This document shows positions 2,655 to 60,760 of a DNA stretch of 64,000 nt, one piece after another. The notes beneath the pieces were generated by a model. That model searched no databases, was not told where the DNA came from, and worked only from the letters and a program-made list of their open reading frames with translations. Origin of the DNA: an uncultured Candidatus Saccharibacteria bacterium (GTDB taxonomy: Bacteria > Patescibacteriota > Andersenbacteria > UBA10190). Every line of letters starts with the position of its first letter. Positions within the stretch are counted from its first letter, which is position 1. The stretch covers positions 2,297-66,296 of the forward strand of contig CAZLVG010000001.1 in NCBI GenBank assembly GCA_964562905.1, given 5' to 3'. A program made the translations under genes and the position numbers.

Positions 2655-3415
2655 GAATATAAATTTAATAATTCTTCTGAAAGATACTGATAAGCTTTAG
2701 CCCCGCGGGACCTGCCCGCGTAGTTAATTATACACTGCCCCGCGCTGGGCGCCTCCGCCAGCTCCGTATTGCGCGGAATAACGCTTTCAAACACGTGGCC
2801 GGGAAAGGTCTTGCGCACTTGGCGCACCACTTTTCTGGCCATAGACACTCTCCTGTCATACATAGTCAGTAGCGCCCCTAAAACCTGCAGCCGGGGGTTT
2901 AGGTGCGACCGCACCAGCTCCACCGTCTGCAAGAGCTGCTCCAGGCCTTCCAGCGCCAGATATTCGCACTGCACGGGTATGAGCAAACGATCGGCCGCCA
3001 CCAAGCCATTAATGGTCAGCAAACCCAGGCTGGGAGGACAATCCACCAGGATAAATTCAAAATGATCCTTCAACGGCTTAAGAGCCCGGCGCAGCCGATA
3101 TTCCCGGTAAGGCCGCTGCATCAGCTCTATAGCCGCGCCGGCTAAGTTAGGAGTGGAAGCTATCAGATTAAGATTCTGAACAGCGGTGGGCTGCAGGGCC
3201 CGCAAAGCACTCTCCTGGCCCGTCAGCACCTCGTACAAAGTGACAGACTCGGCCGACAGCCGCACCCCTACCCCGGTAGTAGCGTTAGCCTGCGGATCCA
3301 GGTCAATGACCACGGTGGGATAGCCGGCTGCCGCTAAGTAGCCACCCAAATTAACGCTGGTGGTCGTTTTGCCCACGCCCCCCTTCTGATTAGTGATGGC
3401 TACCACTTCCGCCAT
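2651..3415 (-). CDS. parA: ParA/Soj family ATPase
   Basis: Deviant Walker A motif VAITNQKGGVGKTTTSVNLG, typical ParA length (254 aa), and operon arrangement with parB. Confidence 0.9.
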   Translation of the reverse strand: MAEVVAITNQKGGVGKTTTSVNLGGYLAAAGYPTVVIDLDPQANATTGVGVRLSAESVTLYEVLTGQESALRALQPTAVQNLNLIASTPNLAGAAIELMQRPYREYRLRRALKPLKDHFEFILVDCPPSLGLLTINGLVAADRLLIPVQCEYLALEGLEQLLQTVELVRSHLNPRLQVLGALLTMYDRRVSMARKVVRQVRKTFPGHVFESVIPRNTELAEAPSAGQCIINYAGRSRGAKAYQYLSEELLNLYS

Positions 3416-3573
3416 GGCTACGAAGAGAAGGAATTTGCCGCTATATTAATCAGCATACTGCTATTATTGTAATATAACTGCCGGCTTTTACACAACAACC
3501 CTTTCAGTAAGCGCTTTTCCACAAGAAGGACAGCTACAAAGCTTGGCAACTATTCCTATCTCCTTGCGATCAG

Positions 3574-3610
3574 TAATTCGTAACTCGTAACTCGTAATTC
3601 GTAATTCGTA
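3574..3610. repeat. Tandem heptamer array (TCGTAAT/TCGTAAC) x ~5.5
   Basis: Direct reading shows gtaattcgtaactcgtaactcgtaattcgtaattcgtaa. Its reverse complement matches motifs at 39961 and 60723. Confidence 0.8.
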
Positions 3611-3632
3611 AAAAAAACTTCCTTGATTTTCC

Positions 3633-3858
3633 CCTCCCTTGATCATTACTATCTACACATCTTATGACTATGTTGAGCCACTACAGCCATATTGAGGTAA
3701 ATCGGTTAATCCAGATGTTTTAAGAACGCTTAATTAAGGCAAGATTACATACGCCTTGTTTAAGCGAATAACGTTTCTCTGCTCTATAATTGGCCTAACA
3801 GTAGCTTTGTTATGCCTCCTAATAGACTTGTGTAGATAGTAATGCCCTTGATGGGGGA
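3633..3858. repeat. AT-rich spacer bounded by a 16-bp inverted repeat (candidate replication origin or regulatory region)
   Basis: cattactatctacaca (3644-3659) pairs with tgtgtagatagtaatg (3829-3844). Each arm is flanked by a direct cccttgat. The intervening ~165 bp are markedly AT-rich relative to the window. Confidence 0.4.
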
Positions 3859-3944
3859 ATTTAAGGGGAGAAAATTAGGGAGCAGTTATCCGGTATTTCC
3901 TTGCTAGTTAGCTCTTTTAATGTAAGCTATCATACTTGCATGCG

Positions 3945-4031
3945 GCCGCGGTGACGGAATTGGCAGACGTGATGGCCTCAAAAGCCATTGGGAGCAATCC
4001 CGTGAGAGTTCGAGTCTCTCCCGCGGCACCA
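3945..4031 (+). tRNA. tRNA-Leu(CAA), class II with long variable arm, CCA encoded
   Basis: Acceptor stem GCCGCGG/CCGCGGC. Anticodon stem-loop ATGGC-CTCAAAA-GCCAT gives anticodon CAA. There is a long variable arm and a T-arm GAGAG-TTCGAGT-CTCTC. The 3' end is ACCA. Confidence 0.9.
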
Positions 4032-4106
4032 GTTGGATAAGTTCACCCCGACAAGGCGGCCGGGTGCCGCCGGGCGGGGGCGAAAGTCTTCCGCCGGACG
4101 TCATAC

Positions 4107-5258
4107 CTATAAGAACACATACATCAGCACCAGGGCCGCGGCTAAAAGCCAGGCTATGGTAAAACCGGTGAAAGGCAGCACCGTGGCAAAAACGGCCACC
4201 AGGACCAGTGCCACCACGCCTTTGGAAACAGCCAGCGCCATCTCCAGCGCCACCACGTACTGCAAAGCCCCGACTTGCCTCCCCTGCTTATACAGCCGGT
4301 ACCACATGGGGATCCTAATGCCTATGAAGGCCGTTTTTGACAGGGTGTCCGTCAGTAAAACTCTAAGCGGGGTGGAAGATACAGGACGAAACAGATAGCC
4401 CAGTATCATGAAAGGCATGTGCATCCTTATAATATTCTTCCTGGAAAAGCGGTCACTTATCTCACCGACAAAGAAGCCCACCAACATCATTACCAACACG
4501 TTCAGGGAAGCCACCAGGCCCAACCGCGCCGCGCCGCCTAGAATAATGAACATGAAAATGGGCCAGAGTACCATATCAATCAGATTTTCTCCCCACCCTA
4601 TCATGGTCAGCACCATCTTACGGTGCCGGGGGGAAGCGATAATACGCCAAGGAGTGCCGTAGTTAAACTTCAGGCGGCGGTAATCCTCTTTGGTACGCAG
4701 CAGCGGGAACACGGCTAATAAGGCCAGGCAGGCGGCGGCCACAAACAACACCGGAAAACCGAAATGAGCGGCGATCAGACCGCCGGCCAGCGGGCCCAGC
4801 ACTCCCGCGCCCCTGCTTAGCGCGTACAACCAGGACAGTTCCGTCCCTTGGTTGTTCGCTTCGCTAAACAGGCAGACTTCGGTGTGGTAGGCCGGCCAGT
4901 AAAACAGCTTGAACAAAGTCAGTAATATCCAGGCGACCCAAAACAATCCCGGCAGCCACGGCAGCGAGGCCAGCGTCAGAAAATAAATAACAAAAAGGGG
5001 CATGGCAAGGGAAAGCGAGCGTTCCGATCCGAACCGGCCCACGAATTTCCCTCCCAGCGGCATGAGGACCGCGTACAGGGCGTAGTGAAGGGCGTAATAA
5101 AAAGCTATCTTGGACAGGGTAATACCCTCTTGGTAAAAAAAGACTGGCTCAAAGATCAGTATCAGCGCGCTGGCAAACGAAAAAAGAACAGTAAACGCGT
5201 ACAGCTCTTTCATTTCCCGTCTGGGCCTGACAGCGAACAGCCGGTAAAAAATGTTCAT
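4107..5258 (-). CDS. MFS-type transporter (polytopic membrane protein)
   Basis: About 12 hydrophobic segments. The MFS-like loop motif GGKFVGRFGSER lies between TM2 and TM3. Confidence 0.6.
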   Translation of the reverse strand: MNIFYRLFAVRPRREMKELYAFTVLFSFASALILIFEPVFFYQEGITLSKIAFYYALHYALYAVLMPLGGKFVGRFGSERSLSLAMPLFVIYFLTLASLPWLPGLFWVAWILLTLFKLFYWPAYHTEVCLFSEANNQGTELSWLYALSRGAGVLGPLAGGLIAAHFGFPVLFVAAACLALLAVFPLLRTKEDYRRLKFNYGTPWRIIASPRHRKMVLTMIGWGENLIDMVLWPIFMFIILGGAARLGLVASLNVLVMMLVGFFVGEISDRFSRKNIIRMHMPFMILGYLFRPVSSTPLRVLLTDTLSKTAFIGIRIPMWYRLYKQGRQVGALQYVVALEMALAVSKGVVALVLVAVFATVLPFTGFTIAWLLAAALVLMYVFL

Positions 5259-5293: not shown

Positions 5294-6619
5294 ATGAAAA
5301 AAGAGTCTCAAAAAACAAAGCCTTACCGCCTGGCTTTCGTGGGAGCCGGCTACGTAGGGCTGGTTTCCGGCACCTGCCTGGCGGAGGTGGGCCACAGCGT
5401 TATCCTGGTCGATAACAATAAAGAAAAAATAGCCCGGCTAAAGCGAGGAGGCATCCCTATCTATGAACCGGGTCTGGAAAGGCTGGTGCGCAAAAACGCG
5501 AAAGCGGGCCGTCTTACCTTTACCACCAACTTGCCGTCCGCCATCAAGAAGTCAGAGGTTATCTTCATCGCCGTCAACACCCCTCCCCTGCCAGACGGCC
5601 AGGCGGATCTGTCCTACGTGGCCGGCGCGGCGCGGCAGATAGCGCAGGCGGCCAACTCTTACAAGGTTATTGTGGATAAGAGTACGGTTCCCGTGCAAAC
5701 CGGCGAAAGAGTGCTGGAAACTATTAAGCAGCACAACCAAAAAACCGTTGACGTGGACGTGGTCAGCAACCCTGAATTCCTGCGGGAGGGCTCCGCCGTT
5801 GAAGATTTTCTCCAGCCTGACCGCATAGTGGTGGGCGTGGATAACAAACGGGCGGAGAAAATCATGCGTGCTGTCTACCGCCCCTTTAAAGCGCCGTTTA
5901 TCGTGACGGATGTGAAAAGCGCCGAACTCATAAAGCACGCCAGCAATTCTTTCCTGGCCACTAAAATCTCGTTCACCAACGCTCTGGCCCGCCTCTGCGA
6001 GCTGTCAGGCGCTAACATTGACCAAGTGGTTAAAGGCATGGGGCTGGACCAGCGCATCGGCCGCCACTTCCTCAAAGCCGGGCTGGGCTACGGGGGAAGT
6101 TGTCTTCCGAAGGACGTATCGGCCTTTATCTCCATAGCGAGGGAGCTAGGCTACAACTTCGGCCTGCTGAAAGAAGTTGCTAAAATAAACAACCGGACCC
6201 GCAGTCTGTTCATGCGTAAGATAAATCGGGCCCTGTGGGTTATTAAGGGCAGGACCGTAGCCGTGTGGGGACTGGCCTTCAAACCGAACACCGACGACAT
6301 GCGCAACGCGCCCTCCATAGAGATTGTCAACCAACTGCACGCTGACGGCGCCGCCATTCAGGCTTATGATCCACAGGCAAACCAGACAGCCAAAGCCGTT
6401 TTAGGCAATAAAGTGCGCTATAAGAAAAATATGTATGACGCCTTAAAGGGCGCCGACGCCCTGGTGATAGTAACCGACTGGGACGAGTTCAAGGAAGTTG
6501 ACTGGGACAAAGCCGCCTCACTGCTTGACAATCCTATCATCATTGACGGCCGTAACATGTATGAGCCCCAGGAGATGGAGAAGAAAGGATTGGTGTATCA
6601 CAGCGTGGGACGAGGATAA
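5294..6619 (+). CDS. ugd: UDP-glucose 6-dehydrogenase
   Basis: N-terminal Rossmann motif FVGAGYVGLVSG, catalytic-Cys region GGSCLPKD, and 441 aa, typical of the UDP-glucose/GDP-mannose dehydrogenase family. Confidence 0.9.
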   Translation: MKKESQKTKPYRLAFVGAGYVGLVSGTCLAEVGHSVILVDNNKEKIARLKRGGIPIYEPGLERLVRKNAKAGRLTFTTNLPSAIKKSEVIFIAVNTPPLPDGQADLSYVAGAARQIAQAANSYKVIVDKSTVPVQTGERVLETIKQHNQKTVDVDVVSNPEFLREGSAVEDFLQPDRIVVGVDNKRAEKIMRAVYRPFKAPFIVTDVKSAELIKHASNSFLATKISFTNALARLCELSGANIDQVVKGMGLDQRIGRHFLKAGLGYGGSCLPKDVSAFISIARELGYNFGLLKEVAKINNRTRSLFMRKINRALWVIKGRTVAVWGLAFKPNTDDMRNAPSIEIVNQLHADGAAIQAYDPQANQTAKAVLGNKVRYKKNMYDALKGADALVIVTDWDEFKEVDWDKAASLLDNPIIIDGRNMYEPQEMEKKGLVYHSVGRG

Positions 6620-6844: not shown

Positions 6845-7534
6845 TCAGGAATATTCGGAAAGCTTTCTGTGTGCCTCTTCCAACTGCTCCTTGTCATTGA
6901 CCGGCAGCCACCAGTCCGCTTCCACCACTTTTATTTTTTTACCTTTTTCCGCCATCATCTTCATCCATACGTCCGGAGTCTCATACTCCCCCCGGGCCGA
7001 AGGAGACACTTCCACCTCAAAGAAGCTCTGCTCCATCACCATCGCCCCGTTCCAGGCCAGATCCGACACGAACTCTTTCGGTTTTTCCACAGATTTGACC
7101 AGATACCCGCTTTCATCCGTAACCAGAATGCCCCAGTTTTCCGGATTGCTAACTCTTGACGCCAGCACCGCCAAGTCATACTGAACCAGCTCCCGCAGAC
7201 CCCGCGGCCCGAAAATATCATCCCCTACCATCCCCAGCCACCGGCCTTTGACCAGGTGCTTAGCCGCCCCAAAGGCGTGCGCCAAGCCCAGCTGTTCTTC
7301 TTGAACAACAAAAGTAATCGGGCGTCCTTCGTATCTCTTTGTTTTAAAATGTTCCCGTATAGCTCTTTCATGGGGGCCGCCGACAACAAAAATGAGCCGG
7401 TCTACCTCTGCCGGCAGCATGCGCAGCGCGTGCTCCACCACCGGCCGGGCGGCCACCGGCAACAACTGTTTCGGTCCTTCATAATACTTGGCCATCCGCG
7501 TCCCCTTGCCGGCCATCAGCACCACCGCCTGCAT
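6845..7534 (-). CDS. Sugar-phosphate nucleotidyltransferase (NTP-transferase family)
   Basis: N-terminal motif MAGKGTRM...PKQLLPV, typical of RmlA/GlmU-type nucleotidyltransferases. Length is 229 aa. Confidence 0.75.
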   Translation of the reverse strand: MQAVVLMAGKGTRMAKYYEGPKQLLPVAARPVVEHALRMLPAEVDRLIFVVGGPHERAIREHFKTKRYEGRPITFVVQEEQLGLAHAFGAAKHLVKGRWLGMVGDDIFGPRGLRELVQYDLAVLASRVSNPENWGILVTDESGYLVKSVEKPKEFVSDLAWNGAMVMEQSFFEVEVSPSARGEYETPDVWMKMMAEKGKKIKVVEADWWLPVNDKEQLEEAHRKLSEYS

Positions 7535-7568: not shown

Positions 7569-8990
7569 CTAGCCGCTGGGGGTGGGGGTAGCGGAAGGCA
7601 AGGGGGACCCCCAAGGGGTAATATTGAACTTACAGGTGGTATCTGCAGACATTATAAACTTAATAGACTCCTCCTTCTGGCCGGCCACAATAAGCTCCTT
7701 CTCCTGGCCAGCCACCCGCCAACAGCTCCATTCCTGATCGTAACCCCTGTACGGGGGAAGATCTTCTCCCACACTACCACGCAAAATCACTGCCTGGCCC
7801 GACGGCACATTTGTCTCGCAACGCCGGCCCGCCTGGGGGCCAACGGTGCCCAACTCCACCTTTGGCGCCGGCAGCCAGCAGTCTATTATCACCACATCAC
7901 TTGCTGTACTCCCTGTAACCGTCGCGTACAAGCCCGAAGCCCAGGACATGGGGTATCGATTCTGCCAGGCTGGGTAGGCTTTTAGTACCGGGTTGGGAGG
8001 AGGAGTGGGCGCGGCACACGTTAGCTTACAATCGCTTACCACGTGCTTTGCCACCACGCATGTGTGTCTAGGATTCCCGCTCTCATCCTTCTCATAAGAA
8101 CAACTTGCGGAAGCCGTGGCAGGTCTGCTACGGTAACTACTGTTGCACCTGAAGGCGGGCATGTCGCCGTCCTCCGGCGGCATACAAGGCGACTCGCACC
8201 AGATCTTCTCTGCAGCCTTTCTCTCCGCATGCTCCACTACCTCTGACGCTTTACAATCGTCTGAAAATCCCGCGAGCCTGCACGCCCTCTTCTCGGCTTT
8301 CTCCCTGGCTATTCTATACGCTTCCCGCGGATCTCGCAGAGGCTTATCATTTGACCCCGTTCCCACCAAAAGGTCCGTAGTATTGGTACCAGCGTTATAG
8401 CCATAGTCCGACTCCGGACAGTTTACCACCACGTAGTCGTCGGAGGGCGGCTCCGGCACGCACTCATAATTGCAATCGCACCCCCCAAAAACTTCCCCCG
8501 TCACCGCCACGGAAGCCACCCCCTCCTCCACTTGTCGTTGGAAGCCGCCATCCTCCCAATCTACCCCCTTCACTTCTGGATTATCACAACTGGCACTGCC
8601 TTGCCTTAGGCAGGAGTCTCCACACTTGTCACTATAATCAGGCTTGTTCACTTTGGATTCCACTCGGCTGCACAATTCTTCTTTAGCTTTATCCAGGGCG
8701 TTGCCTTGAGCCTCTTCTATCAACTTCATCCAAATTATATCGGCAACATCGTCCTCACCCGTACCCGCTGGCAAGCCAGGCCAGGACGCCTCACCTTCTG
8801 CCGCTACCGTTTCAGTTTCCGCATGCGTGTCGCTACAAGAAAGAGGCGGCAACGCTGTCTTAAGCTGTCTGGCGTATCTCTCCCAGCCAGCCACATAGAC
8901 CACCACTACCACAACCCCAACTACAAGCAGGCCCAAAACTACAGGCTTAAGAAACAATAAATTATTCCTCTTTTTCCGTCTCGTCGTCAT
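7569..8990 (-). CDS. Cys-rich secreted/membrane-anchored hypothetical protein
   Basis: N-terminal TM anchor (LLVVGVVVVVVYVAGW). About 30 Cys lie in the extracellular part. No family is recognised. Confidence 0.5.
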   Translation of the reverse strand: MTTRRKKRNNLLFLKPVVLGLLVVGVVVVVVYVAGWERYARQLKTALPPLSCSDTHAETETVAAEGEASWPGLPAGTGEDDVADIIWMKLIEEAQGNALDKAKEELCSRVESKVNKPDYSDKCGDSCLRQGSASCDNPEVKGVDWEDGGFQRQVEEGVASVAVTGEVFGGCDCNYECVPEPPSDDYVVVNCPESDYGYNAGTNTTDLLVGTGSNDKPLRDPREAYRIAREKAEKRACRLAGFSDDCKASEVVEHAERKAAEKIWCESPCMPPEDGDMPAFRCNSSYRSRPATASASCSYEKDESGNPRHTCVVAKHVVSDCKLTCAAPTPPPNPVLKAYPAWQNRYPMSWASGLYATVTGSTASDVVIIDCWLPAPKVELGTVGPQAGRRCETNVPSGQAVILRGSVGEDLPPYRGYDQEWSCWRVAGQEKELIVAGQKEESIKFIMSADTTCKFNITPWGSPLPSATPTPSG

Positions 8991-9086: not shown

Positions 9087-12000
9087 CTACACCGCCGGGG
9101 CGGGACTTGCTTGGGGAACCACGGGCATAAGGTCAACCTTGAGTTGAAGCTTGGCGTCGCGGGCAGAGGTAATTTGAACATTGTCCCGGGTAAAAGGCGC
9201 GTAGCCCGGCTTGGACACCGTCACCGTGTAACGGCCGGGCGGCGGCAGAGCGAAAAAGCGCCCGCGGTTGTCCGCCACGCGCGTCATGACCAGGCGGTTG
9301 GTCCCCCGCTCGTACAACCTGACCACCGCCAGGCCCAGCGGCACGTGGCTGACAGCGTCCCGCACCAGGCCATAGGACGGCTGCCGGCGCGCTTCCGACA
9401 CGATCTTGGCCACCACCAGCAACACGTACCCCAGCTCCAGGGTAAGAAACAGAGAACCGGGCGACATCAACAGCAATACCGTATTAAGCAAGGAACCGGC
9501 GATAAACACGGGCCAAGACAGCCGGTGGCCTTGGTACTGCGCCGCCTGCCATAAGCCCAGCCAGCGGGCTCTGAACGAGCCCACCGCCTCGCCGGTGGGC
9601 TTTAGGGGAATAACCAGATCTATCGGCTTACCTTCATCAACAATACTCAATTTTCCACCCGTGTATACCACCTCGCCTTCTTTAGCCTCAAAAGCCGAGG
9701 CCGCGGGCGCGAAGGCGAAACCTTCCGCCCTGACGGCTAAAGTGTATTCCCCCGGTGGCAGCGCCACGGCAAATAGACCTTTAGTGTTAGTGTAGAGCTT
9801 GCGCTTAACATTCTTGAGGCGATTATAAACTGTCACCCGCGCCCCTACCACTGGCTCCCCCGTCCGGTGATGCACCACCCGGCCATGATGCCAGGGGCCT
9901 TTGCGCCCCCGCAGCAAGGAAACCGCTTTTTCCAAGCGCCTCTTCCCCACCAGTTGCCCGAGGCGCTCCAGCAGGGAAATAAGGCCGGCCAGCAGTGATA
10001 CCGCGAACAAAGCTATATCCAACGGCCGCAGCACCAGGGAGATCAACGGCGGCGTCTCACGGACAGGCTCCACCAACTCCTCCTGTTCCTCTTCAACGCC
10101 GGCCGCCTCTTCCGGCAAGGCTCTGGTCACCACGGTAACCGTGTCGCTGTCCGCCAGCCCCTCCGCGTCCCGGACCACCAAGCTGAATATGTAAACCTCA
10201 CTCTCGCCCACCGCCCTGAAAGACGAAGTGGCGGCATCAGACGAGCTCAAATCAACCACGGGGCCGTCCAGCTGGCGCCACTGGTAACTCAATGGCGTGC
10301 CCTCGGGGTCGCGGGAGTCCGTGCCGTTTAAAATGACCAGGTCATCAGAACTTACCACCTGGTCTTCGCCGGCATCGGCTTCCGGAGGCAAATTTTTCGG
10401 AGTAGGGGAAGGAGAAAGCCGCGGCCCGGACGGCGAGGGGGAGGCGGCGGGGGAGGCAGGCACGGACGCCCCGGGAGAGGCTGGCGCCGGCCCGGTGGGG
10501 GCGGGCGCGGGGCTGGCCGGCAACGCCGGCGAAGCGGTGACCGCCCGCGCGCTGGGCGCCCAGGCTTCATTGCCGTAACTGTCCGTGGCATACAACTTGA
10601 ATGAATAGCGAGTGTTGGAAGATAACCCCGTCACCGTGGTACCCGTCGCGTCAACATCAGCCATCGTCTCGTCGTCTTCCTTGTCCCACTTCTGTGACGC
10701 GCGCTCCAGCACCGCCGCGTGGTCAGTGCCATAATACAGTTCATAAGTAAAGGAGTTGCTGTCCGTCGCCCGGCTCCAGGTCAACTGCACCGAGTCGGTA
10801 CCGGCCTGCGACACTTGGAAACCGGATAAAGAAGAAGGGGCGGCATTATCCACCTGGAAGGTATCGCTGATTGTTACTTCGCCCAAACCGGCGTCATCCC
10901 GCGGAATGACACGCAGGCGGACCGATGACGGTTCGCCCACGATGGGCCCGCCGGTATTCAAGGTGGACTGCGTATCCCACTTAAGCGTCACCTTCACGCT
11001 GCCCTCGTTAGTGTCTATAGCATTGTCTGTTCCCACTTGATAGCCATTACCGTTGGACAGGTCAGCCGATCCCTTGTCCGTACTGGCAGAGGTCAGCCAG
11101 GGCTTGTACCAGTGATCACCGTCCAGCGAGTACTGCACCCGCAATTTGGTCTGGTCCCGGTCGCCATCCGATACAGTAGTGGCAAAGGTGACGGTACCGG
11201 AGCCGTCGGTGCTCTGGGATATACTCGACGGCGCCGTAGCCGCCGGCGCGGCCGCCGTGCGCTCGTACCAGTACACGGTGCCCCGGTGGTGGTCGCCCGC
11301 CACGATATCAAAATCATTGTCGCCGTCAAGGTCGGACACGGCCACTCCCAGCACGCTCTGCAGGGAGCTGGTTATGGTTTTTTTGGTAAATGATTCGCTG
11401 CCGTCGTTATCAAACCAGTAAATACTGTTATCATCCTGGGCCGCGGCCACGATATCCTCATCGCCGTCCTCGTCCAAATCAACCGGGACGGCCGTTACCG
11501 CGTCCACGCTGGTGGCCACTTCTCCGCGCTGAAAGGCGTAAAAGTCAAGGTTCCGATACAATAACAGCATGTCGCCGGCCGGCTCCGCCGCGATGATGTC
11601 CCGCTTGCCGTCGCCATTAACATCGGCTGTGTCCAGGTATGTCTGCCCGGTGTTCGAGTCATCAATATCAATACGTGACCAACTGTACCCGTCAGCGGTG
11701 GACCAGCGCTGCAAGCCGGCGCTGCCGCCGGTGATTATGTCGTTATAACCGTTGGCGTTCACGTCGGCAATAGTAATGGCCGTCACGCCGGTGCCGGTGC
11801 CCATGGTGGAAGAGGTAAAAGTGCCGGAGCCGTTATTCATCCAACGTTCCAGCGTTACCTGTTCCCCGGCAGTGGTGGCTGTTACCACGTCTGGCGCGCC
11901 GTCACCGTCAATATCTCCGGCGTAAGCCTTACCCTGGCCGCCCGTTCCGATATCGGTACCGGAAAACTCAACCTCGCCCGTATTGCGGTACCAGCGCACG

Positions 12001-12434
12001 CTGGGCTGGGCGCTGGTAAAAGTAACCAGCAGGTCCTGGGCTCCGTCGCCGTCCAGATCAACCACCCGCACCCGCTCACTGTCTACGTCGTCCACCAGCT
12101 TAGCGGTAAACGTGCCGTCGTCATTGTTGATGTACACTTTTACCCCGTCCAGTCCGGCCGTTACCACATCCACGTCACCGTCATCATCTATGTCAGACGC
12201 CGCCACGCCCAATACCCCCACCGCTGACGTTTCCACTCCCATGACGTGCGCGGTGAAGTCCAGCGCTCCGGCCGGCCGCGGTACGGATAGAAACCGTATG
12301 CCGCCATAGGCCAGCGCCGCTGCCAAGCCCAGCGACAGCACGATCCTTAGCGCCGGCAAAGCTGAGACCCAGTGTGGACTAATCCGCCGGATGCTAAGGC
12401 TGGCCCTCTGTTTCCGCACTTGTCCGTTCATCAT
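9087..12434 (-). CDS. Giant surface protein with FG-GAP/VCBS-like repeats, FN3-like domain, Pro/Ser/Ala linker, TM segments and CarboxypepD_reg-like domains
   Basis: Repeated DxDGDGxxD/FG-GAP-like motifs (DIDDDGDVDVV, DLDGDGAQDLLV, DVNGDGKRDII, DLDEDGDEDIV, DLDGDNDFDIV). An FN3-like stretch (LSGFQVSQAGTDSVQLTWS...YSFKLYATDSYGN). A linker PAPAPTGPAPASPGAS. Two CarboxypepD_reg-like modules (GARVTVYN...GEYTLAVRAEGF and RLYERGTN...GRYTVTVSKPGY). Confidence 0.7.
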   Translation of the reverse strand: MMNGQVRKQRASLSIRRISPHWVSALPALRIVLSLGLAAALAYGGIRFLSVPRPAGALDFTAHVMGVETSAVGVLGVAASDIDDDGDVDVVTAGLDGVKVYINNDDGTFTAKLVDDVDSERVRVVDLDGDGAQDLLVTFTSAQPSVRWYRNTGEVEFSGTDIGTGGQGKAYAGDIDGDGAPDVVTATTAGEQVTLERWMNNGSGTFTSSTMGTGTGVTAITIADVNANGYNDIITGGSAGLQRWSTADGYSWSRIDIDDSNTGQTYLDTADVNGDGKRDIIAAEPAGDMLLLYRNLDFYAFQRGEVATSVDAVTAVPVDLDEDGDEDIVAAAQDDNSIYWFDNDGSESFTKKTITSSLQSVLGVAVSDLDGDNDFDIVAGDHHRGTVYWYERTAAAPAATAPSSISQSTDGSGTVTFATTVSDGDRDQTKLRVQYSLDGDHWYKPWLTSASTDKGSADLSNGNGYQVGTDNAIDTNEGSVKVTLKWDTQSTLNTGGPIVGEPSSVRLRVIPRDDAGLGEVTISDTFQVDNAAPSSLSGFQVSQAGTDSVQLTWSRATDSNSFTYELYYGTDHAAVLERASQKWDKEDDETMADVDATGTTVTGLSSNTRYSFKLYATDSYGNEAWAPSARAVTASPALPASPAPAPTGPAPASPGASVPASPAASPSPSGPRLSPSPTPKNLPPEADAGEDQVVSSDDLVILNGTDSRDPEGTPLSYQWRQLDGPVVDLSSSDAATSSFRAVGESEVYIFSLVVRDAEGLADSDTVTVVTRALPEEAAGVEEEQEELVEPVRETPPLISLVLRPLDIALFAVSLLAGLISLLERLGQLVGKRRLEKAVSLLRGRKGPWHHGRVVHHRTGEPVVGARVTVYNRLKNVKRKLYTNTKGLFAVALPPGEYTLAVRAEGFAFAPAASAFEAKEGEVVYTGGKLSIVDEGKPIDLVIPLKPTGEAVGSFRARWLGLWQAAQYQGHRLSWPVFIAGSLLNTVLLLMSPGSLFLTLELGYVLLVVAKIVSEARRQPSYGLVRDAVSHVPLGLAVVRLYERGTNRLVMTRVADNRGRFFALPPPGRYTVTVSKPGYAPFTRDNVQITSARDAKLQLKVDLMPVVPQASPAPAV

Positions 12435-14871
12435 TATTGTTCACCACAAAATTTATCATGCGCCCTTCCACATAAATAACTTTTGCCAGCTTCCCTTTCT
12501 CCAAATATTTCCTGACGTTAGCCAGCTGTTCTGCCCGCCGCTGAAGTAGCTGGCGGGAATCGCCCGCGGCCGCCTTAACCTCTCCCCTCACCCGGCCGTT
12601 AACCTGCACCGGCAAACTCACCTCCGTGGCCGCCAGCTTGTCCTCGTCATACTCCGGCCAATCGGCCCGGCTAACAGAAGGCTTATGGCCTGCCTTTTCC
12701 CACAGCTCCTCCGCCAAATGCGGGGCAAAGGGGGATAAAAGGATAATAAATGTCTCCCAGGTCCGGCGGGCCACCACCGGCTGCTCTTCCAGTTCGTTCA
12801 ACATCTCCATCATAGCCGCCACGGCCGTATTGAACTTTAGCCTGTCAATCCCCTCTGTCACCCGTTTGACCGTCCGCTGAAGCGCCAGGTCTACTTCTGC
12901 CGGCACGTCATTTTTGTCGGCAACTCTTTCCCCTACTTGCCAGACACGGTCAAAGAATCTCCTCACCCCTCTAACGCCGGCAGTATTCCACTCCACCGCC
13001 TTCTCAAAGGGACCTATAAACATCTCGTACGTCCGCAGCGTATCGGCGCCAAACTGCTGTGCCACTTCATCCGGATTGATCACGTTGCCCCGCGATTTTG
13101 ACATCTTAACGCCTGCCTTCCCCAGCACCATGCCGTGCGAGGTGCGCTTGGTATAAGGTTCACTGCTTGGCACCAAGCGCAAATCGTACAAAAACTTATG
13201 CCAAAATCTGGAATACAGTAAATGTAAAGTGGTGTGCTCCATGCCGCCATTGTAAAGATCCACCGGCATCCAATACGCCATAAGCTTCCCGCCGGCCAAC
13301 TCCTGGTCATTGCGGGGGTCGGTATACCGCAGGTAATACCAGGACGACCCAGCCCAGTTAGGCATGGTGTCGGTTTCCCGCCGGCCCTTTCCTCCGCAGG
13401 TTGGGCATGAGGCGTTAACCCACTCGGCCACGTTGGCCAAAGGAGAGCGGCCGGTATCAGTTGGTTCGTACCGCTCAACTTTAGGCAGCTCCACCGGTAA
13501 ATCTTCCTCGGGAACGGGAACTTCACCACATTCGTTGCAATAAATGATAGGAATCGGCTCGCCCCAATAGTGCTGCCGGGAAAACACCCAGTCCCTTAAA
13601 CGATAGGTAACTGCCCTCTTCCCCCTGCCCCTCTCCTCCAAATAATCCATGACCTTCTCTTTGGCTTCACTAGTCTTAAGACCATTCAAAAATCCTGAAT
13701 TAACCATTCGGCCCTCGCCCTCTTCCACCTGCTCTGTCTTGGTTATGGGCAAATCGTCGCCGCCTGGTCCGACCACCACGCGTTTTATCGGAAGTCCTAC
13801 GGCCTGGGCGAAGTCAAAATCCCGCCTGTCGTGCCCGGGCACCCCGACTACGGCCCCCGTACCCACATAAGCCAGGACAAAATCTGCTACCCAGATGAGC
13901 ATTTTCTCGCCCGTCAGGGTGTTCTTGGCTGAATATCCGGTGAACACGCCCGTCTTTCTTCCGCCTTCCTCCTGTCTCTCCAGTTCGGACTTGCGCAAAG
14001 CCGCTTTGACGTATTCAGTTATCTTGTCCCTGTTTTCCGAAGGTAGCTCCCCTTTGATTATCTTCTTTACCCAATCATGCTCCGGCGCCAACACCACAAA
14101 AGTGGCGCCGAAATTAGTGTCCGGCCTGGTGGTAAAACAGGTAATGCCGCGTCCAGTCCCGCCGACTTCGTACGTTATTTCCATTCCCTCGCTGCGGCCG
14201 ATCCAGTTTTTTTGTTGCTCTTTCACCCGCCGGGGGAAGTCCACTTCTTCCAATCCCGCCAGCAATTTATCCGCGTAAGCCGTAATGCGCAGCATCCATT
14301 GCTCCATCTCGCGTCTCTCAACTCGGCCTTCACATCTTTCGCACGCACCGCCTGCCACCTCTTCGTTCGCCAGTCCAATTTTGCAGGATGGGCACCAGTT
14401 AATAGGAGCTTTCTGCTTGTAGGCCAGCCCGTTTTTATATAACTGCAGGAAAATCCACTGTGTCCATCGGTAATAACCAGGATCCGTGGTATTTATTTCC
14501 CGAGTCCAGTCAAAAGAAAAACCCAATGATTTCAGCTGTTTCCGGAAGGTGTCGGTATTTCTCCGAGTCGCCTGGGCGGGATGGATGCCGGTCTTAATAG
14601 CGTAATTTTCCGTGGGGAGACCAAAAGCGTCCCAGCCCATGGGGAATAAAACATTGTAGCCTTCCATGCGGCTCTTTCTGGCTACTACGTCCAGCGCCGT
14701 ATAACCGCGACAATGCCCGACGTGCAGACCGTCACCGGAAGGATAGGGAAATTCCACCAGAATATATTTTTTAGGCTTGCTAGAAAAATCTTCGGCTGTA
14801 AAGATCCCCCTTTCCTCCCAGTACCTCTGCCATTTTTTTTTGATTATTTTTGGATCGTACCTCGCGGACAT
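12394..14871 (-). CDS. leuS: Leucyl-tRNA synthetase
   Basis: N-terminus KKWQRYWEERGIF, HIGH motif PYPSGDGLHVGHCRGY, and KMSKS motif VKMSKSRGN. Length is 825 aa. Confidence 0.95.
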   Translation of the reverse strand: MSARYDPKIIKKKWQRYWEERGIFTAEDFSSKPKKYILVEFPYPSGDGLHVGHCRGYTALDVVARKSRMEGYNVLFPMGWDAFGLPTENYAIKTGIHPAQATRRNTDTFRKQLKSLGFSFDWTREINTTDPGYYRWTQWIFLQLYKNGLAYKQKAPINWCPSCKIGLANEEVAGGACERCEGRVERREMEQWMLRITAYADKLLAGLEEVDFPRRVKEQQKNWIGRSEGMEITYEVGGTGRGITCFTTRPDTNFGATFVVLAPEHDWVKKIIKGELPSENRDKITEYVKAALRKSELERQEEGGRKTGVFTGYSAKNTLTGEKMLIWVADFVLAYVGTGAVVGVPGHDRRDFDFAQAVGLPIKRVVVGPGGDDLPITKTEQVEEGEGRMVNSGFLNGLKTSEAKEKVMDYLEERGRGKRAVTYRLRDWVFSRQHYWGEPIPIIYCNECGEVPVPEEDLPVELPKVERYEPTDTGRSPLANVAEWVNASCPTCGGKGRRETDTMPNWAGSSWYYLRYTDPRNDQELAGGKLMAYWMPVDLYNGGMEHTTLHLLYSRFWHKFLYDLRLVPSSEPYTKRTSHGMVLGKAGVKMSKSRGNVINPDEVAQQFGADTLRTYEMFIGPFEKAVEWNTAGVRGVRRFFDRVWQVGERVADKNDVPAEVDLALQRTVKRVTEGIDRLKFNTAVAAMMEMLNELEEQPVVARRTWETFIILLSPFAPHLAEELWEKAGHKPSVSRADWPEYDEDKLAATEVSLPVQVNGRVRGEVKAAAGDSRQLLQRRAEQLANVRKYLEKGKLAKVIYVEGRMINFVVNNNDERTSAETEGQP

Positions 14872-53821: not shown

Positions 53822-55639
53822 TCAAGGCGAGGGCGAAGGGCTGGGAGAGGGCGAAGGGCTGGGAGAGGTGTCATCGTCAACTATAATTACCCCGGCCGGC
53901 GGGCCTAAAGACACGCTGTGGGCGTGGCTAAAGGCGCGGGCCAACGCCGCCGCGAAGTCTTCGTCCCCCTCCACCTGATCGTCGCCCTCCACCGCCGCCG
54001 GCACCGTTTGACTTAAGGAACCGCCCGGTTCAAAGGTGAGCGTGATGTCACTGCCGCTGTAATCGCCATCCGACCGCGCGGCCGACCCGTCCTGAAATTC
54101 CAGCCGGACGGTCAACGTATCATCCACCGATGACGACAAAGACACCTTAAAAGCAATCGGCGTGCTGTCGGAGGCATCCCCTTCAGTCACCGGCAGCGGG
54201 TTGGACAATACTACGTCAGGATCGGCTGGGTCCACGTTCTGAACGGTCACCGCTACCGGAGAGAGAACTTCTTCCGCCGCGCAAGTGCCGGCCGGACCCT
54301 GGCAGCTGCCGCCGACCACGCTGCAGCCGGAGGGACCTTCAGCGACCACTTGAGTCTCGCAGCCGCTCTCCCATCCCCCCCAGTACCAGCTGCAGCCGGC
54401 GTCATCGGCGCAAATAGTGCGGCAGGTGCCGCCAGCGCCGCACATTTCACCCGCGGGACAGTCAGTGTCCTGTGAGCAAGCCGCGTCGCTTGATGATACA
54501 TGGCACTCTTCACCGTTAGCGCACCAGCTCCTGTCCGAATCCACCAGCGGGTCGGGTTCCGGACACGCCATCGGGCCACATTCCAGTCCGGGGCAGGCCC
54601 CGCCGGCGTCATATCCCCCCCGGCAGGAAGCCGACGCGCCTCCGCCGGACGCCGCCCGGCAATCAGGCGTCCACGTGGTCCGGCACTGGCTGACTACCCG
54701 CCAGCGGCCGCAGCCAGTAAAGGTGCCGGAATCTATATATTGGCAGTCAGTAACACAGCTGCCCGGGCAGTCCAGCGAGGTGGCACAGCTGTCCTGTTCG
54801 CAAAACATAGCAGTATCGTCGGCCGGTCCTCCTTCGTCATAGGAAGCGAAAGTAAGCTCGTACCAGTCATTTTCGTAACAGTAACCGTTAAAACAGGCGC
54901 TGCCGGCCGGACAAGTCCAGTCCGGACAGCTAGCCGTGGGGCAAGTACCGCTAAGCGGGCACAGCGCTCCCGTACCGCACCACGTACCGGGCCGGCAAGA
55001 CTCCCCTTGGACCGGCAAATCCGGCGCCGTCACTCCGCAAAAGCCGGTCAGGGGGCACAGCTGCCCGTCGTCGCACAGCAGGCCCGGCGTGCAAGCGGTA
55101 CCCGAAGTCGGCGGCCCCGGTCCCGGCGGAGGGTCGCACACCCCCGTGGAAACGTCGCAATCGCGCCCGTCGGGACATGAAACACAGGAGGCGGGCCGTC
55201 TTTTCTCCGTCACGTAAGTTACGGTCCGCACGTCACGCGCCTCTCCTCCGGCTGTGGTCCAGGCCACTTCTATCTCAACCTTTTTAAAATCCTCCGCTTC
55301 ATCAGCAGTCAGCGGGTCATCCACATAGGCAATACTGGTTGTCATCTGATACTGTTCATTATCCCGGCTAACCGTCTGCGGAGCCGCGTCTATCACTCCC
55401 TCCGGCTCTGCCGGGTCCGGGGACGTATAGCCCACGTCGCTGTAAGGCAAGGAGTCGATGTACCCTTTCTGCTCGTTCAAAATGGACAGCGCCGACAACT
55501 GGCGCTCCGCTCCGGTAAGCAGGCGCGTAGTCAGAACGGAAAGTCCCAGCACACTGACGCTCACAAACCCGATAATAAAGACTGACACCAACACGCCGAC
55601 AAGGCTCTGTCCTCTACAAACTTCCCCTGTGTCCTTCAT
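53822..55639 (-). CDS. Cys-rich cell-surface protein with C-terminal Calx-beta domain and (SP)n tail; pilus-associated adhesin candidate
   Basis: N-terminal hydrophobic anchor. About 60 Cys in repeated CxxGxxC modules. Calx-beta motif DYSGSDITLTFEPGGSLSQTVPAAVEGDDQVEGDEDF. The C-terminus is SPSPSPSPSPSP. It is co-oriented directly upstream of the PMT gene. Confidence 0.6.
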   Translation of the reverse strand: MKDTGEVCRGQSLVGVLVSVFIIGFVSVSVLGLSVLTTRLLTGAERQLSALSILNEQKGYIDSLPYSDVGYTSPDPAEPEGVIDAAPQTVSRDNEQYQMTTSIAYVDDPLTADEAEDFKKVEIEVAWTTAGGEARDVRTVTYVTEKRRPASCVSCPDGRDCDVSTGVCDPPPGPGPPTSGTACTPGLLCDDGQLCPLTGFCGVTAPDLPVQGESCRPGTWCGTGALCPLSGTCPTASCPDWTCPAGSACFNGYCYENDWYELTFASYDEGGPADDTAMFCEQDSCATSLDCPGSCVTDCQYIDSGTFTGCGRWRVVSQCRTTWTPDCRAASGGGASASCRGGYDAGGACPGLECGPMACPEPDPLVDSDRSWCANGEECHVSSSDAACSQDTDCPAGEMCGAGGTCRTICADDAGCSWYWGGWESGCETQVVAEGPSGCSVVGGSCQGPAGTCAAEEVLSPVAVTVQNVDPADPDVVLSNPLPVTEGDASDSTPIAFKVSLSSSVDDTLTVRLEFQDGSAARSDGDYSGSDITLTFEPGGSLSQTVPAAVEGDDQVEGDEDFAAALARAFSHAHSVSLGPPAGVIIVDDDTSPSPSPSPSPSPSP

Positions 55640-55650
55640 ATGCGGCTCGG

Positions 55651-56325
55651 TTATGGAAAGGCCGGAGCGGCCGGCGGCAGCGGAGGAGCGCTGCCGGCCG
55701 CGGTATCTCTTAACCGTCCCCGCCGCGGCGTGACCTGGGTTTTGATAACCGCCGCCGGCGGGTCCTGGTCCTCGTCGGCATCAACTAAAAAGGTAATCTC
55801 TACCCGATCAACCGCCTTTAAGTCGTAGGCGGGATCCACTGCCTGCGCGCCGGCCCCGCCCAGCGAATAATAAACCAACAGCGGCTTGGCTTGCGCCGCG
55901 TTCCTGAAGCCGCGGGCCAGCACCTGCGGCGACTCGGTCCCCGTGCCTCCCATTTCCGTCACTCGGCGCATAAGTTTATCGCCGTCCACCCAGTACTGCA
56001 CCATCTCCGGCTCACTGTCGTCGTCGGCGTTGGTGTATATCACTATCTCTCCCGGGCCGGCGCGCCTTAACCACCTTTCCGCCTCACCGCTGAATTGGCC
56101 GTCATCGTCAAAATCCACGTTGCCGGCGTTGCGGATAGCGTCGCTCATCCTGTCCATTTCCGCCTTGGCCTCTTCCACTATCCTGCCCTGCTCTATCTGA
56201 AAGCGCGAGATACCCGCCACCCTCACCGCCAGCGCGAACAAGGCCGTCAACACCAGCGCGCCCGCCGCCGCCACCAGCAATACCTCAATAAAGGTCAGGC
56301 CTCTTTTGTCATTCTCAATCATCAT
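55651..56325 (-). CDS. Type IV pilin-like protein (prepilin N-terminal cleavage/methylation domain)
   Basis: Class III signal KRGLTFIEVLLVAAAGALVL (G|LTFIE). Confidence 0.8.
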   Translation of the reverse strand: MMIENDKRGLTFIEVLLVAAAGALVLTALFALAVRVAGISRFQIEQGRIVEEAKAEMDRMSDAIRNAGNVDFDDDGQFSGEAERWLRRAGPGEIVIYTNADDDSEPEMVQYWVDGDKLMRRVTEMGGTGTESPQVLARGFRNAAQAKPLLVYYSLGGAGAQAVDPAYDLKAVDRVEITFLVDADEDQDPPAAVIKTQVTPRRGRLRDTAAGSAPPLPPAAPAFP

Positions 56326-57172
56326 CCAGAATTCTCACCTGGCGCGTGCTAACGGTCAGGTTAGCGTTAACGGGATCGCTAAGCACGGCCTGGAAGCTTT
56401 CATTCCCCTCCGGCTCGGTATCAGCCACGATATCCACCATAATCATCTTTGACGTCTGGCCGGGATCAAAGACCACCGTCTCCGTTTTGGACACATAATC
56501 CTGGCCGGCCGTCGCCGAATCGGGCTGGGTGGCAAAATCAACCGTCACCCGCAGGGGATACTCATGGGACAGAACCACGGTCAGCGGAGCCTGATTATCG
56601 TCGGGCGGGTCGCCTTCATTAACGCTTAACGGCGAAGACGGATCAAATTTAACGTTCGGCAACGAGGTGGTCAGGCCCAGCGCCCCGCATTCCACGTCCA
56701 GTTCATGATCCCAGGACCTGACATAATACCGCGTTCCGCCTACCGCCCCGGTCATGTCCGCGGCTTCGGCCGTAATAAGCTGGCATCTTCGCTCCACCGT
56801 CAAATCATGGCCCAGCGAGGACACCTTAAGCGGAACCCCCGCTCCGCCAGGCTGAAACGACAGCTCGGCAGCGCCGATAATATTACCGCTACTGTCTGAC
56901 ACCGCCCGCACCAGCGAACCTTCACTTATCAGGCCGGTCGGCGCGTAGGTCCCGCTATTTAAAAGAAACAAAGTGTACTCTACTCCCGCTTCCGCTATGT
57001 GAAAGGCTTGTTCTTCCTGCTCCTGGTCGACTACCTGGTGCGACTGCCTGACCGCGAAGTTCAGCCAGGCCGTTACCACCACCAGCAATATCACCAAGAA
57101 CATCAACGTTATGGTCATCACCGCTCCCCGCTGGCCGCGCCGCGCTCGGGCCCGTCTTCCGTAGTCCAGCAT
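56315..57172 (-). CDS. PilX-N-like pilin with Calx-beta domain
   Basis: N-terminus QRGAVMTITLMFLVILLVV...AFHIAEAGVEY and C-terminal Calx-beta-like motif VDFATQPDSATAGQDYVSKTETVVFDPGQTSKMIMVDIVADTEPEGNESFQ. Confidence 0.6.
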   Translation of the reverse strand: MLDYGRRARARRGQRGAVMTITLMFLVILLVVVTAWLNFAVRQSHQVVDQEQEEQAFHIAEAGVEYTLFLLNSGTYAPTGLISEGSLVRAVSDSSGNIIGAAELSFQPGGAGVPLKVSSLGHDLTVERRCQLITAEAADMTGAVGGTRYYVRSWDHELDVECGALGLTTSLPNVKFDPSSPLSVNEGDPPDDNQAPLTVVLSHEYPLRVTVDFATQPDSATAGQDYVSKTETVVFDPGQTSKMIMVDIVADTEPEGNESFQAVLSDPVNANLTVSTRQVRILDDD

Positions 57173-57177
57173 AGTGT

Positions 57178-57798
57178 TTACTCCTCTATTACCTCTCCTA
57201 AATTAGTTTTTAGGTTGCGCAGCTGCACCTGCGACATTACTTCCACCGGATCCGGTTCCTGATTAGGATCAACATCTATAATAAGGCGAAATTGCAGGTA
57301 TTTTACCTCCGTTACGTCCGAAGACGATAAAGGCTCGCTGTCGGCCGGGTAATCGCCGGAATAATAAATAAAAATGGGCGTAGCCCCGTTGCGCACGGCG
57401 CCCACCGCCGTGGATACCTCTTCCGTATTTTCATCATAAACTAGAGGATCTCCCCCTGGTACGATCACCCCTCGCTTAAGGTCAGTCCCCTCCAGCTCGT
57501 AACGTATTCTTTCAGTAAGTCCGTCCTGGTCCACGTCGGAATAAAAAACTATCTTTTGCGGCTGTGCCGCGGCCAGCGGATAAGCGCCCGTGTCGGACAC
57601 GCGCAGCTCCCTCAACGACTTAGACAGCCGCTTTAAATGTACCCTGGCCGACTCCGTGGAACTGGCTTGCATAAACACTAAACGCGACAGAGGATATCCC
57701 GCGGCCATTAAGCGCAACAGCGCTACCAGAATAACAGAGCTGAAAAAAGCCACCAGTATCACTTCAATAAACGTGACTCCTGGTGATGGCCGGCTCAT
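57178..57798 (-). CDS. Type IV pilin-like protein
   Basis: Class III signal SPGVTFIEVILVAFFSSVILVALL. Confidence 0.8.
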   Translation of the reverse strand: MSRPSPGVTFIEVILVAFFSSVILVALLRLMAAGYPLSRLVFMQASSTESARVHLKRLSKSLRELRVSDTGAYPLAAAQPQKIVFYSDVDQDGLTERIRYELEGTDLKRGVIVPGGDPLVYDENTEEVSTAVGAVRNGATPIFIYYSGDYPADSEPLSSSDVTEVKYLQFRLIIDVDPNQEPDPVEVMSQVQLRNLKTNLGEVIEE

Positions 57799-60516: not shown

Positions 60517-60540
60517 CCCGGCAACAATTAATGCTAATAT

Positions 60541-60656
60541 ACAGAGGTAACATTATGCCATGCCACTATACTTGTGACGGGCTCTGGCGCGGCCCATGCA
60601 CCCCCGCGCCGCGCCACCCGTTTATTTAAAGAGTGGCATGGCATAATGTGATATCT
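60541..60656. mobile_element. MITE-like repeat, copy 4 (complete, both TIRs; inverted relative to copy 3)
   Basis: acagaggtaacattatgccatgcc...ggcatggcataatgtgatatct. It is about 90% identical to the reverse complement of copy 3, including the GC-rich core and the aaataaacgggtggcgc box. Confidence 0.75.
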
Positions 60657-60722
60657 ATAACTCACAGGTTTAAGTATAAATAATTATCCCTCCACCGACC
60701 AACCTCACCTCGCCCACACTAG

Positions 60723-60752
60723 CTACGAATTACGAGTTACGAATTACTGATT
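60723..60752. repeat. Dispersed heptad motif copy ACGAATTACGAGTTACGAATTACTG
   Basis: Near-identical to the reverse complement of 3574-3610, including the flanking attactgat. It lies immediately downstream of the pilB stop. Confidence 0.7.
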
Positions 60753-60760
60753 ACAAAACC

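Follow-up and report, generated by a model that had tools for sequence, protein, structure and literature searches.

Seven-bladed beta-propellers built from FG-GAP repeats are known from the head of integrin alpha and from CRTAC1, ITFG2 and aldos-2-ulose dehydratase, which are alike in having seven four-stranded blades and calcium-type hairpin loops of the DxDxDGxxD pattern. In integrin alpha, the propeller head is followed by a leg of beta-sandwich domains (thigh and calf), and at the membrane by one helix and a short GFFKR tail. PVL of Psathyrella velutina and AAL-2 of Agrocybe are fungal seven-bladed integrin-like lectins; they are soluble single-domain proteins with calcium-containing FG-GAP-type propellers and bind terminal GlcNAc. 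In addition, FG-GAP/VCBS propeller repeats are common in surface proteins of Planctomycetes, Bacteroidota and other bacteria, often together with GEVED domains or domains of the type IX secretion system (T9SS). Transthyretin-like (TTL) sandwiches of the family PF13620 have been described in the TTL domain of carboxypeptidase D, in SlaB and in the NTE domain of SusC. The prevailing view of Patescibacteria is that they live on other cells, to which they attach, and to our knowledge their surface machinery is almost undescribed except for type IV pili. In this study, we analysed a stretch of 64,000 nucleotides from contig CAZLVG010000001.1 of the assembly GCA_964562905.1 (hereafter the window), and in particular its largest gene, which encodes a protein of 1115 aa. 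We found that the last ~320 residues of this protein are a portable, previously unannotated three-helix membrane module. The whole protein may be a surface receptor with the layout of integrin alpha.

The gene is not a chance open reading frame (ORF), because an identical protein is present at NCBI (P0001) and the database search returned ~73 full-length homologues. The protein contains no cysteine at all in a motif scan. From the N-terminus onwards, its domain order is signal/anchor helix, propeller, a sandwich that we call domX, FN3, linker, PKD, transmembrane (TM) helix, CarboxypepD_reg, TM hairpin and a second CarboxypepD_reg. The features are as follows.

9087..12434, minus strand: whole gene, 1115 aa plus stop, the longest ORF of the window
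12264..12434, minus strand: N-terminus, residues 1-57, with an Arg/Lys-rich tail, a hydrophobic helix (22-49) and a conserved AGA|L as the putative cleavage site
11250..12263, minus strand: residues 58-395, predicted seven-bladed FG-GAP (integrin-alpha-type) beta-propeller with a DxDxDGxxD calcium-type loop in each blade
10839..11243, minus strand: residues 398-532, domX, a conserved beta-sandwich without a family match, with an Asp-box-like YSxDGxxW motif (AlphaFold2 pLDDT ~95)
10539..10838, minus strand: residues 533-632, FN3 domain (Pfam fn3 and an AlphaFold2 beta-sandwich)
10395..10538, minus strand: residues 633-680, flexible Pro/Ala/Ser-rich linker (pLDDT <50, low conservation)
10125..10394, minus strand: residues 681-770, PKD domain, K319L-like (PF22352, E = 1e-15)
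9957..10124, minus strand: residues 771-826, an acidic linker and then TM2 (796-826), where the portable C-terminal module begins
9597..9893, minus strand: residues 848-946, CarboxypepD_reg/transthyretin-like domain 1, basic, predicted cytoplasmic
9393..9521, minus strand: residues 972-1014, TM3-turn-TM4 hairpin with the conserved polar residues G980, N984, P992, E1000, Y1003 and K1010
9123..9371, minus strand: residues 1022-1104, CarboxypepD_reg/transthyretin-like domain 2, the most conserved part of the protein, predicted cytoplasmic

The Pfam search matched FG-GAP_3 (PF13517) to six stretches (E = 3e-38, 130.7 bits against a cutoff of 26.9) and also found FG-GAP (PF01839; E = 7e-12, 45.3 bits, cutoff 22.1). 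The fn3 match (PF00041) at residues 537-627 was marginal (E = 8e-7, 29.6 bits, cutoff 25). CarboxypepD_reg (PF13620) matched twice above its threshold (E = 5e-23), and both copies have the seven-strand sandwich of transthyretin-like domains. Over residues 681-768, the PKD models PF22352 and PF18911 scored 57.7 and 34.4 bits (cutoff 27). For domX there was no significant sequence match in Pfam or PDB; the best one, FlgE_D2, stayed below the cutoff (E = 0.002), and a match to Csm5 (E = 1.8) was rejected as spurious. Furthermore, a sequence scan placed hydrophobic helices at residues 22-49, 796-826, 972-990 and 993-1014. A first-pass annotation, made from the letters of the window without database searches, had proposed a multi-domain surface protein with FG-GAP, FN3 and two CarboxypepD_reg domains. 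The Pfam domains and the conserved TM segments bear this out, and the PKD domain (681-770) and domX (~398-532) have to be added to its list. The two internal hydrophobic segments that it reported are real as well: 796-826 is one helix and 972-1014 is a helix-turn-helix hairpin, and there is an extra N-terminal helix at 22-49.

The structure of the protein was predicted with AlphaFold2 from an alignment of 73 sequences, and the mean predicted local distance difference test score (pLDDT) was 84.2 overall. In the model, the 28 strands of residues 58-394 form seven four-stranded blades of a closed propeller (pLDDT ~95). This was the very test that had been named for the claim that the FG-GAP motifs fold into a propeller, and the claim passed it. 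Each of the seven DxDxDG-type loops found by motif scan (residues 81, 126, 174, 224, 271, 319 and 368, ~48 residues apart) is of the calcium type by motif and is a putative metal site, so the earlier count of at least five is now seven; their Asp residues are invariant or at least 90% conserved in the 73 orthologues. Beyond the propeller there are three confident beta-sandwiches, at 398-532, 533-632 (FN3) and 681-770 (PKD). Residues 638-679, in the Pro/Ala/Ser linker, and 775-790 are disordered. The linker had been noticed before, and it is indeed disordered in the model, but it measures ~48 aa (633-680) and not 60. The C-terminal part was modelled as a long helix (796-841), a sandwich (848-946), two helices (954-990 and 994-1017) with a three-residue turn between them, and a second sandwich (1037-1100).

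Thus far the protein resembles integrin alpha in its layout, namely a propeller head, a leg of beta-sandwich domains and the membrane. However, its sequence identity to integrin alpha and related FG-GAP propellers is only 10-17%, and calcium-type loops are present in all seven blades, compared with three to four blades in integrin-type propellers. Its leg consists of domX, FN3 and PKD instead of thigh and calf domains, and the single helix and GFFKR tail are replaced by three membrane helices and two folded domains that are predicted to be cytoplasmic. The motif search did not find GFFKR, and no beta-subunit partner was identified, although no search aimed at one was made. Judged by the marks of that family (thigh and calf, single TM helix, GFFKR and beta pairing), the protein is not an integrin alpha subunit of the eukaryotic type. 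Foldseek matched the propeller to PVL, AAL-2 and ITFG2. PVL and AAL-2 were the best compact matches (TM-score ~0.55 on the target, 18-22% identity); unlike these lectins, the window protein has many domains and is a membrane protein. Generic bacterial FG-GAP/VCBS proteins matched at E = 1e-50 to 1e-100 over 5-35% of the query, and none of them has the stalk or the C-terminal membrane module.

The last ~320 aa make up one unit: a TM helix, a transthyretin-like domain, a TM hairpin and another transthyretin-like domain. A homologue search with the C-terminal 321 aa gave mostly gene fragments, and the wider family emerged from an exhaustive search in which a profile of residues 795-1115 was compared with 1.84 billion representative proteins. 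There were 769 matches at E ≤ 1e-30. Among the best 150 of them, 63 new representatives match the entire module as one stretch, as do a few proteins that had already been found (such as P0126, P0127 and P0133). In the 63, the median distance between the end of the match and the C-terminus is 9 residues, and 37 to 2585 aa precede the match. An N-terminal hydrophobic signal is present in 48 of the 58 module proteins that are complete at the N-terminus. The ectodomains carried by the module are mutually unrelated, and include fn3, Big_5, Big_13, Gly_rich_2, another FG-GAP array, YWTD/SGL propellers, GLUG and PATR. Two large examples end in the module: P0181 (2671 aa, without a taxon name) with a separate FG-GAP array, Big_5 and fn3, and P0189 (2163 aa, Andersenbacteria) with YWTD/SGL propellers and four fn3 domains. 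It is likely that genomes of the Andersenbacteria group encode several module-anchored surface proteins.

The hairpin is well conserved in this wider set (Y1003 in 56 of 56 sequences, G980 in 55, K1010 in 48 and P992 in 47), and a profile built from 56 module sequences, one of them the C-terminal region of the window protein, matches this protein with 355 bits (E = 3.6e-108). No Pfam or NCBIfam model covers residues 972-1014, and a search with the hairpin alone met no Pfam family. No solved structure matches more than one of the two sandwiches, with at most 150 of 321 residues aligned. The TM-sandwich-hairpin-sandwich arrangement is thus not represented among solved structures, and in contrast to the PF13620 sandwiches named above, the two of the window protein are predicted to be cytoplasmic. 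The protein carries a module of the form TM, TTL, TM hairpin, TTL, which we propose here and which has no existing database family.

At some loci, the slot between LeuRS and the nucleotidyltransferase gene is occupied by a reduced form of the gene. These forms are as follows (coordinates of the respective locus).

L023, 6001-6924: 307 aa, the module alone, starting five residues before TM2
L028 (P0128), 3361-5013: 550 aa, with anchor, linker, PKD and module
L024, 4774-6780: 668 aa, with a classical signal peptide, partial propeller, PKD and module
L025, 3496-6528: 1010 aa, without the first CarboxypepD_reg domain only

Loci with a shortened or missing ectodomain have still kept the module. Since a mere tether would not be retained after the loss of its cargo, an independent function of the module is most likely.

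The ~73 full-length orthologues are 1085-1170 aa long and 43-63% identical to the window protein, and those with a name belong to Candidatus Andersenbacteria. Beyond them, the matches fall sharply to generic FG-GAP proteins that cover at most 35% of the query. We compared gene order in 21 species-level GTDB genomes, the window and five further loci from three contig look-ups; the scan of the genome collection used strict peptide patterns and thus recovered only Andersenbacteria-type loci. The order is constant: TatD, RarA, LeuRS, the 1115-aa gene, a sugar-1-phosphate nucleotidyltransferase, a UDP-glucose dehydrogenase (on the opposite strand), MFS, ParA and ParB. The orthologues abut or overlap the LeuRS gene; in the window, the gene and the 3′ end of LeuRS (12394-14871) overlap by 41 nt. 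In the syntenic loci, the orthologues are 45-63% identical to the window protein (77% in the closest relative, over a fragment), compared with 51-67% for LeuRS and 35-70% for ParB, so the gene diverges about as slowly as LeuRS. Because the synteny is fixed and the divergence is like that of LeuRS, the gene has the character of a core gene of Andersenbacteria under purifying selection, and not of a rapidly diversifying adhesin.

All orthologues conserve the TM segments. Conservation per domain in the 73 orthologues is highest in the last CarboxypepD_reg (mean majority frequency 0.79) and TM3 (0.72), and the hairpin residues N984, T985, E1000 and Y1003 are invariant. PKD has 39% of its columns conserved at ≥90%, and domX, with 30%, is among the most conserved parts. 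The Pro/Ala/Ser linker has the lowest conservation, and its length varies among orthologues.

The distribution of charge agrees with one orientation in the membrane. In the 73 orthologues, the net charge is +4.5 in the N-terminal tail, −2.1 in the 25 residues before TM2, +2.9 after TM2, +2.5 before TM3 and +1.7 after TM4; the hairpin loop consists of ~3-6 uncharged residues. All ectodomains are acidic, and the propeller has −36. The same was found in 55 distant module proteins, in which the flank is positive after TM2 (+4.1, 100%) and after TM4 (+2.6, 96%). Because of this positive-inside pattern, the head and stalk are probably outside and both CarboxypepD_reg domains on the cytoplasmic side. 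In addition, residues 55-58, which form the conserved AGA|L, line up with the cleavage site AWA|LQF of the classical signal peptide in the 668-aa protein of L024. The N-terminal helix is probably a cleaved signal peptide rather than a signal anchor, in which case the mature protein would be held by the C-terminal module alone.

Taking these results together, we regard it as somewhat probable that the gene encodes an integrin-alpha-like surface receptor that is anchored in the membrane and has orthologues throughout Andersenbacteria, with head, stalk, portable module and cytoplasmic transthyretin-like domains. In such a receptor, the N-terminal helix would direct export and probably be cleaved at AGA|L, and the seven-bladed propeller would form an exported head on a stalk of domX, FN3 and PKD with the flexible Pro/Ala/Ser linker, both outside the cell. 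TM2 would then cross inwards, and the two transthyretin-like domains would lie on the cytoplasmic face, joined by the hairpin that dips across the membrane. The head on its stalk may bind a ligand, most plausibly a glycan, either of the cell's own envelope polymer or on the surface of a partner cell. The module could be more than a tether and couple the ectodomain to the cytoplasmic side or the membrane interior, whether in anchoring, assembly or transmembrane coupling. LeuRS, the gene itself and the nucleotide-sugar genes downstream of it are probably expressed together.

A wider claim, which we put forward tentatively and hold to be doubtful as yet, is that the ~320-aa unit is a new autonomous membrane device of Patescibacteria. 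It would link diverse extracellular heads to the cytoplasm as a counterpart of the transmembrane and cytoplasmic coupling of integrins, with a function of its own that survives the loss of the ectodomain, and its founding example would be the gene studied here, conserved beside LeuRS in Andersenbacteria. If the unit is indeed a coupling or assembly device, ultra-small bacteria would organise their envelope by a principle that is new. Even as a mere anchor, it supplies a profile with which surface proteomes can be annotated. In either case, the largest gene of the window, beside LeuRS in every genome examined, is a surface candidate conserved across the class; the searchable C-terminal module flags a repertoire of surface proteins in Patescibacteria, and it makes the testable prediction that folded domains are placed in the cytoplasm.

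Several points weigh against the receptor and its coupling module. The topology is based on hydrophobicity, the positive-inside rule and AlphaFold2 secondary structure only, and domains of the CarboxypepD_reg/PEGA type are usually extracellular. The geometry between the domains is unreliable in the AlphaFold2 models (predicted template modelling scores of 0.52 and 0.37). Conserved synteny in streamlined genomes need not imply functional linkage, and scans for promoters and terminators did no better than shuffled sequences. The taxonomy of the distant module proteins is largely lacking, and the names recovered were only Andersenbacteria and 'Patescibacteria group'. Finally, the coupling is a conjecture, and no ligand, partner or output domain was identified.

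The same architecture could also serve inside the envelope. The propeller and stalk would then bind or organise either a glycan with uronic acid or the S-layer of the cell itself, the neighbouring genes would supply UDP-glucose and from it UDP-glucuronate, and the linker may be glycosylated. Two genes of the window are relevant here.

6845-7534, minus strand: AglF/GlmU-like sugar-1-phosphate nucleotidylyltransferase, with matches below the curated cutoffs
5294-6619, plus strand: TuaD/AglM-like UDP-glucose 6-dehydrogenase, a conserved neighbour

Both follow the 1115-aa gene in all loci examined; they would form a supply pair for UDP-glucuronate, which may hint at an acidic envelope glycan. Furthermore, a distant stand-alone module protein (P0133) directly follows a Bac_transf and a GT4 glycosyltransferase. 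Because of the nucleotide-sugar neighbours and this glycosyltransferase context, a connection of the module and the gene with envelope glycans is weakly suggested. The closest small solved propellers in Foldseek are GlcNAc-binding lectins, and slow, housekeeping-like divergence suits a structural role. However, the gene neighbourhood is the sole link to glycans, one of its two enzymes is assigned below the cutoffs as listed, and several lineages have lost the propeller and kept the sugar genes. A role confined to the envelope is thus conceivable, but we would not expect it to be the right one.

A different topology would change the reading of the C-terminal part. If residues 972-1014 span the membrane once, or if one of their helices is interfacial, the second CarboxypepD_reg domain, if not both, would be an extracellular, membrane-proximal surface module. 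This agrees with the typical location of CarboxypepD_reg/PEGA domains, with the only ~3 residues that separate the two hydrophobic stretches and with the moderate confidence of the model in the hairpin region. However, both AlphaFold2 runs gave two separate helices with a turn at the conserved Pro992, the length of either hydrophobic stretch suffices for a passage through the membrane, and 96% of the sequences, among the 73 orthologues as among the 55 distant module proteins, have a net positive flank after TM4. We consider this topology unlikely, and the receptor with both domains in the cytoplasm is retained.

The relation to type IV pilins deserves separate attention. The first-pass annotation had noticed that a 504-aa pilin-like protein (57795-59309, minus strand) also carries CarboxypepD_reg, which is right: it has N_methyl and two such domains. 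It had further suggested domain shuffling between this pilin and the giant protein. In its full form, this idea makes the window protein a mosaic surface adhesin, in which extracellular CarboxypepD_reg adhesion or stalk modules are swapped with type IV pilins and which is, together with its Cys-rich neighbour, a fast-evolving host-interaction factor. The PF13620 domains of both proteins speak for it, as does the type IV pilus cluster within the same window, and large surface proteins with integrin and FN3 domains have been proposed as host-recognition factors in other Patescibacteria (PMC13059738). However, the domains of the two proteins share only the core motif of the family (34-38% identity over ~47 aa), and the module profile sees the pilin at the level of any generic domain (E = 2.7e-6, compared with 3.6e-108 for the 1115-aa protein). 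According to the positive-inside pattern, both CarboxypepD_reg domains of the large protein are predicted to be cytoplasmic and not surface-exposed, and those of the pilin are extracellular. The domains are thus probably on opposite sides of the membrane, and their likeness is at family or superfamily level only. Moreover, the 1115-aa protein had no match to PF07963 or TIGR02532 and no GFxxxE prepilin motif, whereas the 504-aa protein has the N_methyl motif.

A mix-and-match adhesin that diversifies rapidly is at odds with the fixed synteny and the LeuRS-like divergence, which show the opposite, and the Cys-rich gene is missing from the closest relative (L021) and most other genomes, so that there is no obligate pair. 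For these reasons the mosaic adhesin is quite unlikely, and the tempting inference from shared Pfam domains to a recent exchange with the pilin needs to be corrected. Shuffling is real at another level, where the whole ~320-aa module is combined with many unrelated ectodomains, which are not pilins. By sequence, both proteins are no more than candidates for the role of host-interaction factors that had also been proposed.

It is very improbable that the last ~320 aa serve as a signal for sorting or processing like PEP-CTERM, PGF-CTERM or the T9SS C-terminal domain, removed or modified by a dedicated machine and without a role in the mature protein: the strictly C-terminal position on many otherwise unrelated secreted proteins and the conserved TM helix followed by a basic cluster would fit, but no known sorting tag comes near the size of this unit (320 aa, with two folded domains and three helices), the stand-alone 307-aa protein persists in the conserved slot, the folded cytoplasmic domains are the most conserved part, and searches of the 1115-aa protein for LPXTG-sortase, PEP-CTERM, PGF-CTERM and T9SS C-terminal signatures found neither a motif nor a Pfam or NCBIfam match, including sortase-family models.

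The neighbour on the other side of the gene is a different case.

7569..8990, minus strand: 473-aa orphan, membrane-anchored, with 22 Cys and a Pro/Ser/Thr tail, in a variable slot directly downstream of the 1115-aa gene

The absence of a recognisable family had been noted for this protein, and we came to the same result: it has no Pfam match, NCBIfam gave only CrgA below the threshold (E = 0.072, 13.4 bits, cutoff 109), and among 5.8 billion proteins it matches only itself. It has one TM helix, at the N-terminus, and is probably extracellular. In the same slot and on the same strand, L004 (11358-12446, 362 aa) and L014 (7083-8078, 331 aa) encode proteins with an N-terminal anchor, 16-20 Cys and a Pro/Ser/Thr tail; the shuffle z scores of the comparisons (3.0, 1.1 and 2.4) are too low for a claim of homology. 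In L021 and most other genomes, nothing occupies the slot. Because of this absence, the 473-aa protein is a lineage-specific orphan and not an obligate partner of the large protein, and the slot behaves as an insertion hot spot.

Cys-rich surface proteins of ~1650 aa have been described in Peregrinibacteria (PMC4736985). The 473-aa protein is likewise Cys-rich and membrane-anchored or secreted; however, it is much shorter, and sequence similarity was not detected. In our literature search, these Peregrinibacteria proteins, unrelated to ours, were the sole mention of FG-GAP in the candidate phyla radiation, and no paper was found that connects FG-GAP or carboxypeptidase-regulatory domains with Andersenbacteria.

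Some further observations concern the locus and the window. Two small genes break the fixed synteny: a 223-aa gene of no known family between the nucleotidyltransferase and the UDP-glucose dehydrogenase (L004, 13188-13859, minus strand), and an 82-aa ORF with a weak LAGLIDADG_3 match (L028, 8722-8970, minus strand). Ten contigs (L010, L011, L014, L016, L019-L021 and L024-L026) carry an Andersenbacteria-type orthologue and the synteny, yet are labelled 'uncultured Candidatus Saccharibacteria'. On such contigs of metagenome-assembled genomes, the label is probably generic or incorrect.

In the type IV pilus cluster of the window (53822-62506, minus strand), genes for a PilB-like ATPase (60761-62506) and a PilC-like platform protein (59299-60516) are accompanied by a run of five pilin-like genes; of these, one encodes 605 aa with 41 Cys, Calx-beta and an (SP)n tail, and another 285 aa with Calx-beta. 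The local content of guanine plus cytosine peaks at 0.61 (10001-12000) and 0.63 (54001-56000), compared with ~0.55 window-wide. Horizontal transfer was considered for the first peak and rejected, because the synteny is fixed and the codons of the propeller gene are rich in Asp and Gly. The peaks overlap this Asp/Gly-rich gene and a Cys/Gly-rich pilin-like gene, respectively, and both are probably compositional and not a mark of transfer.

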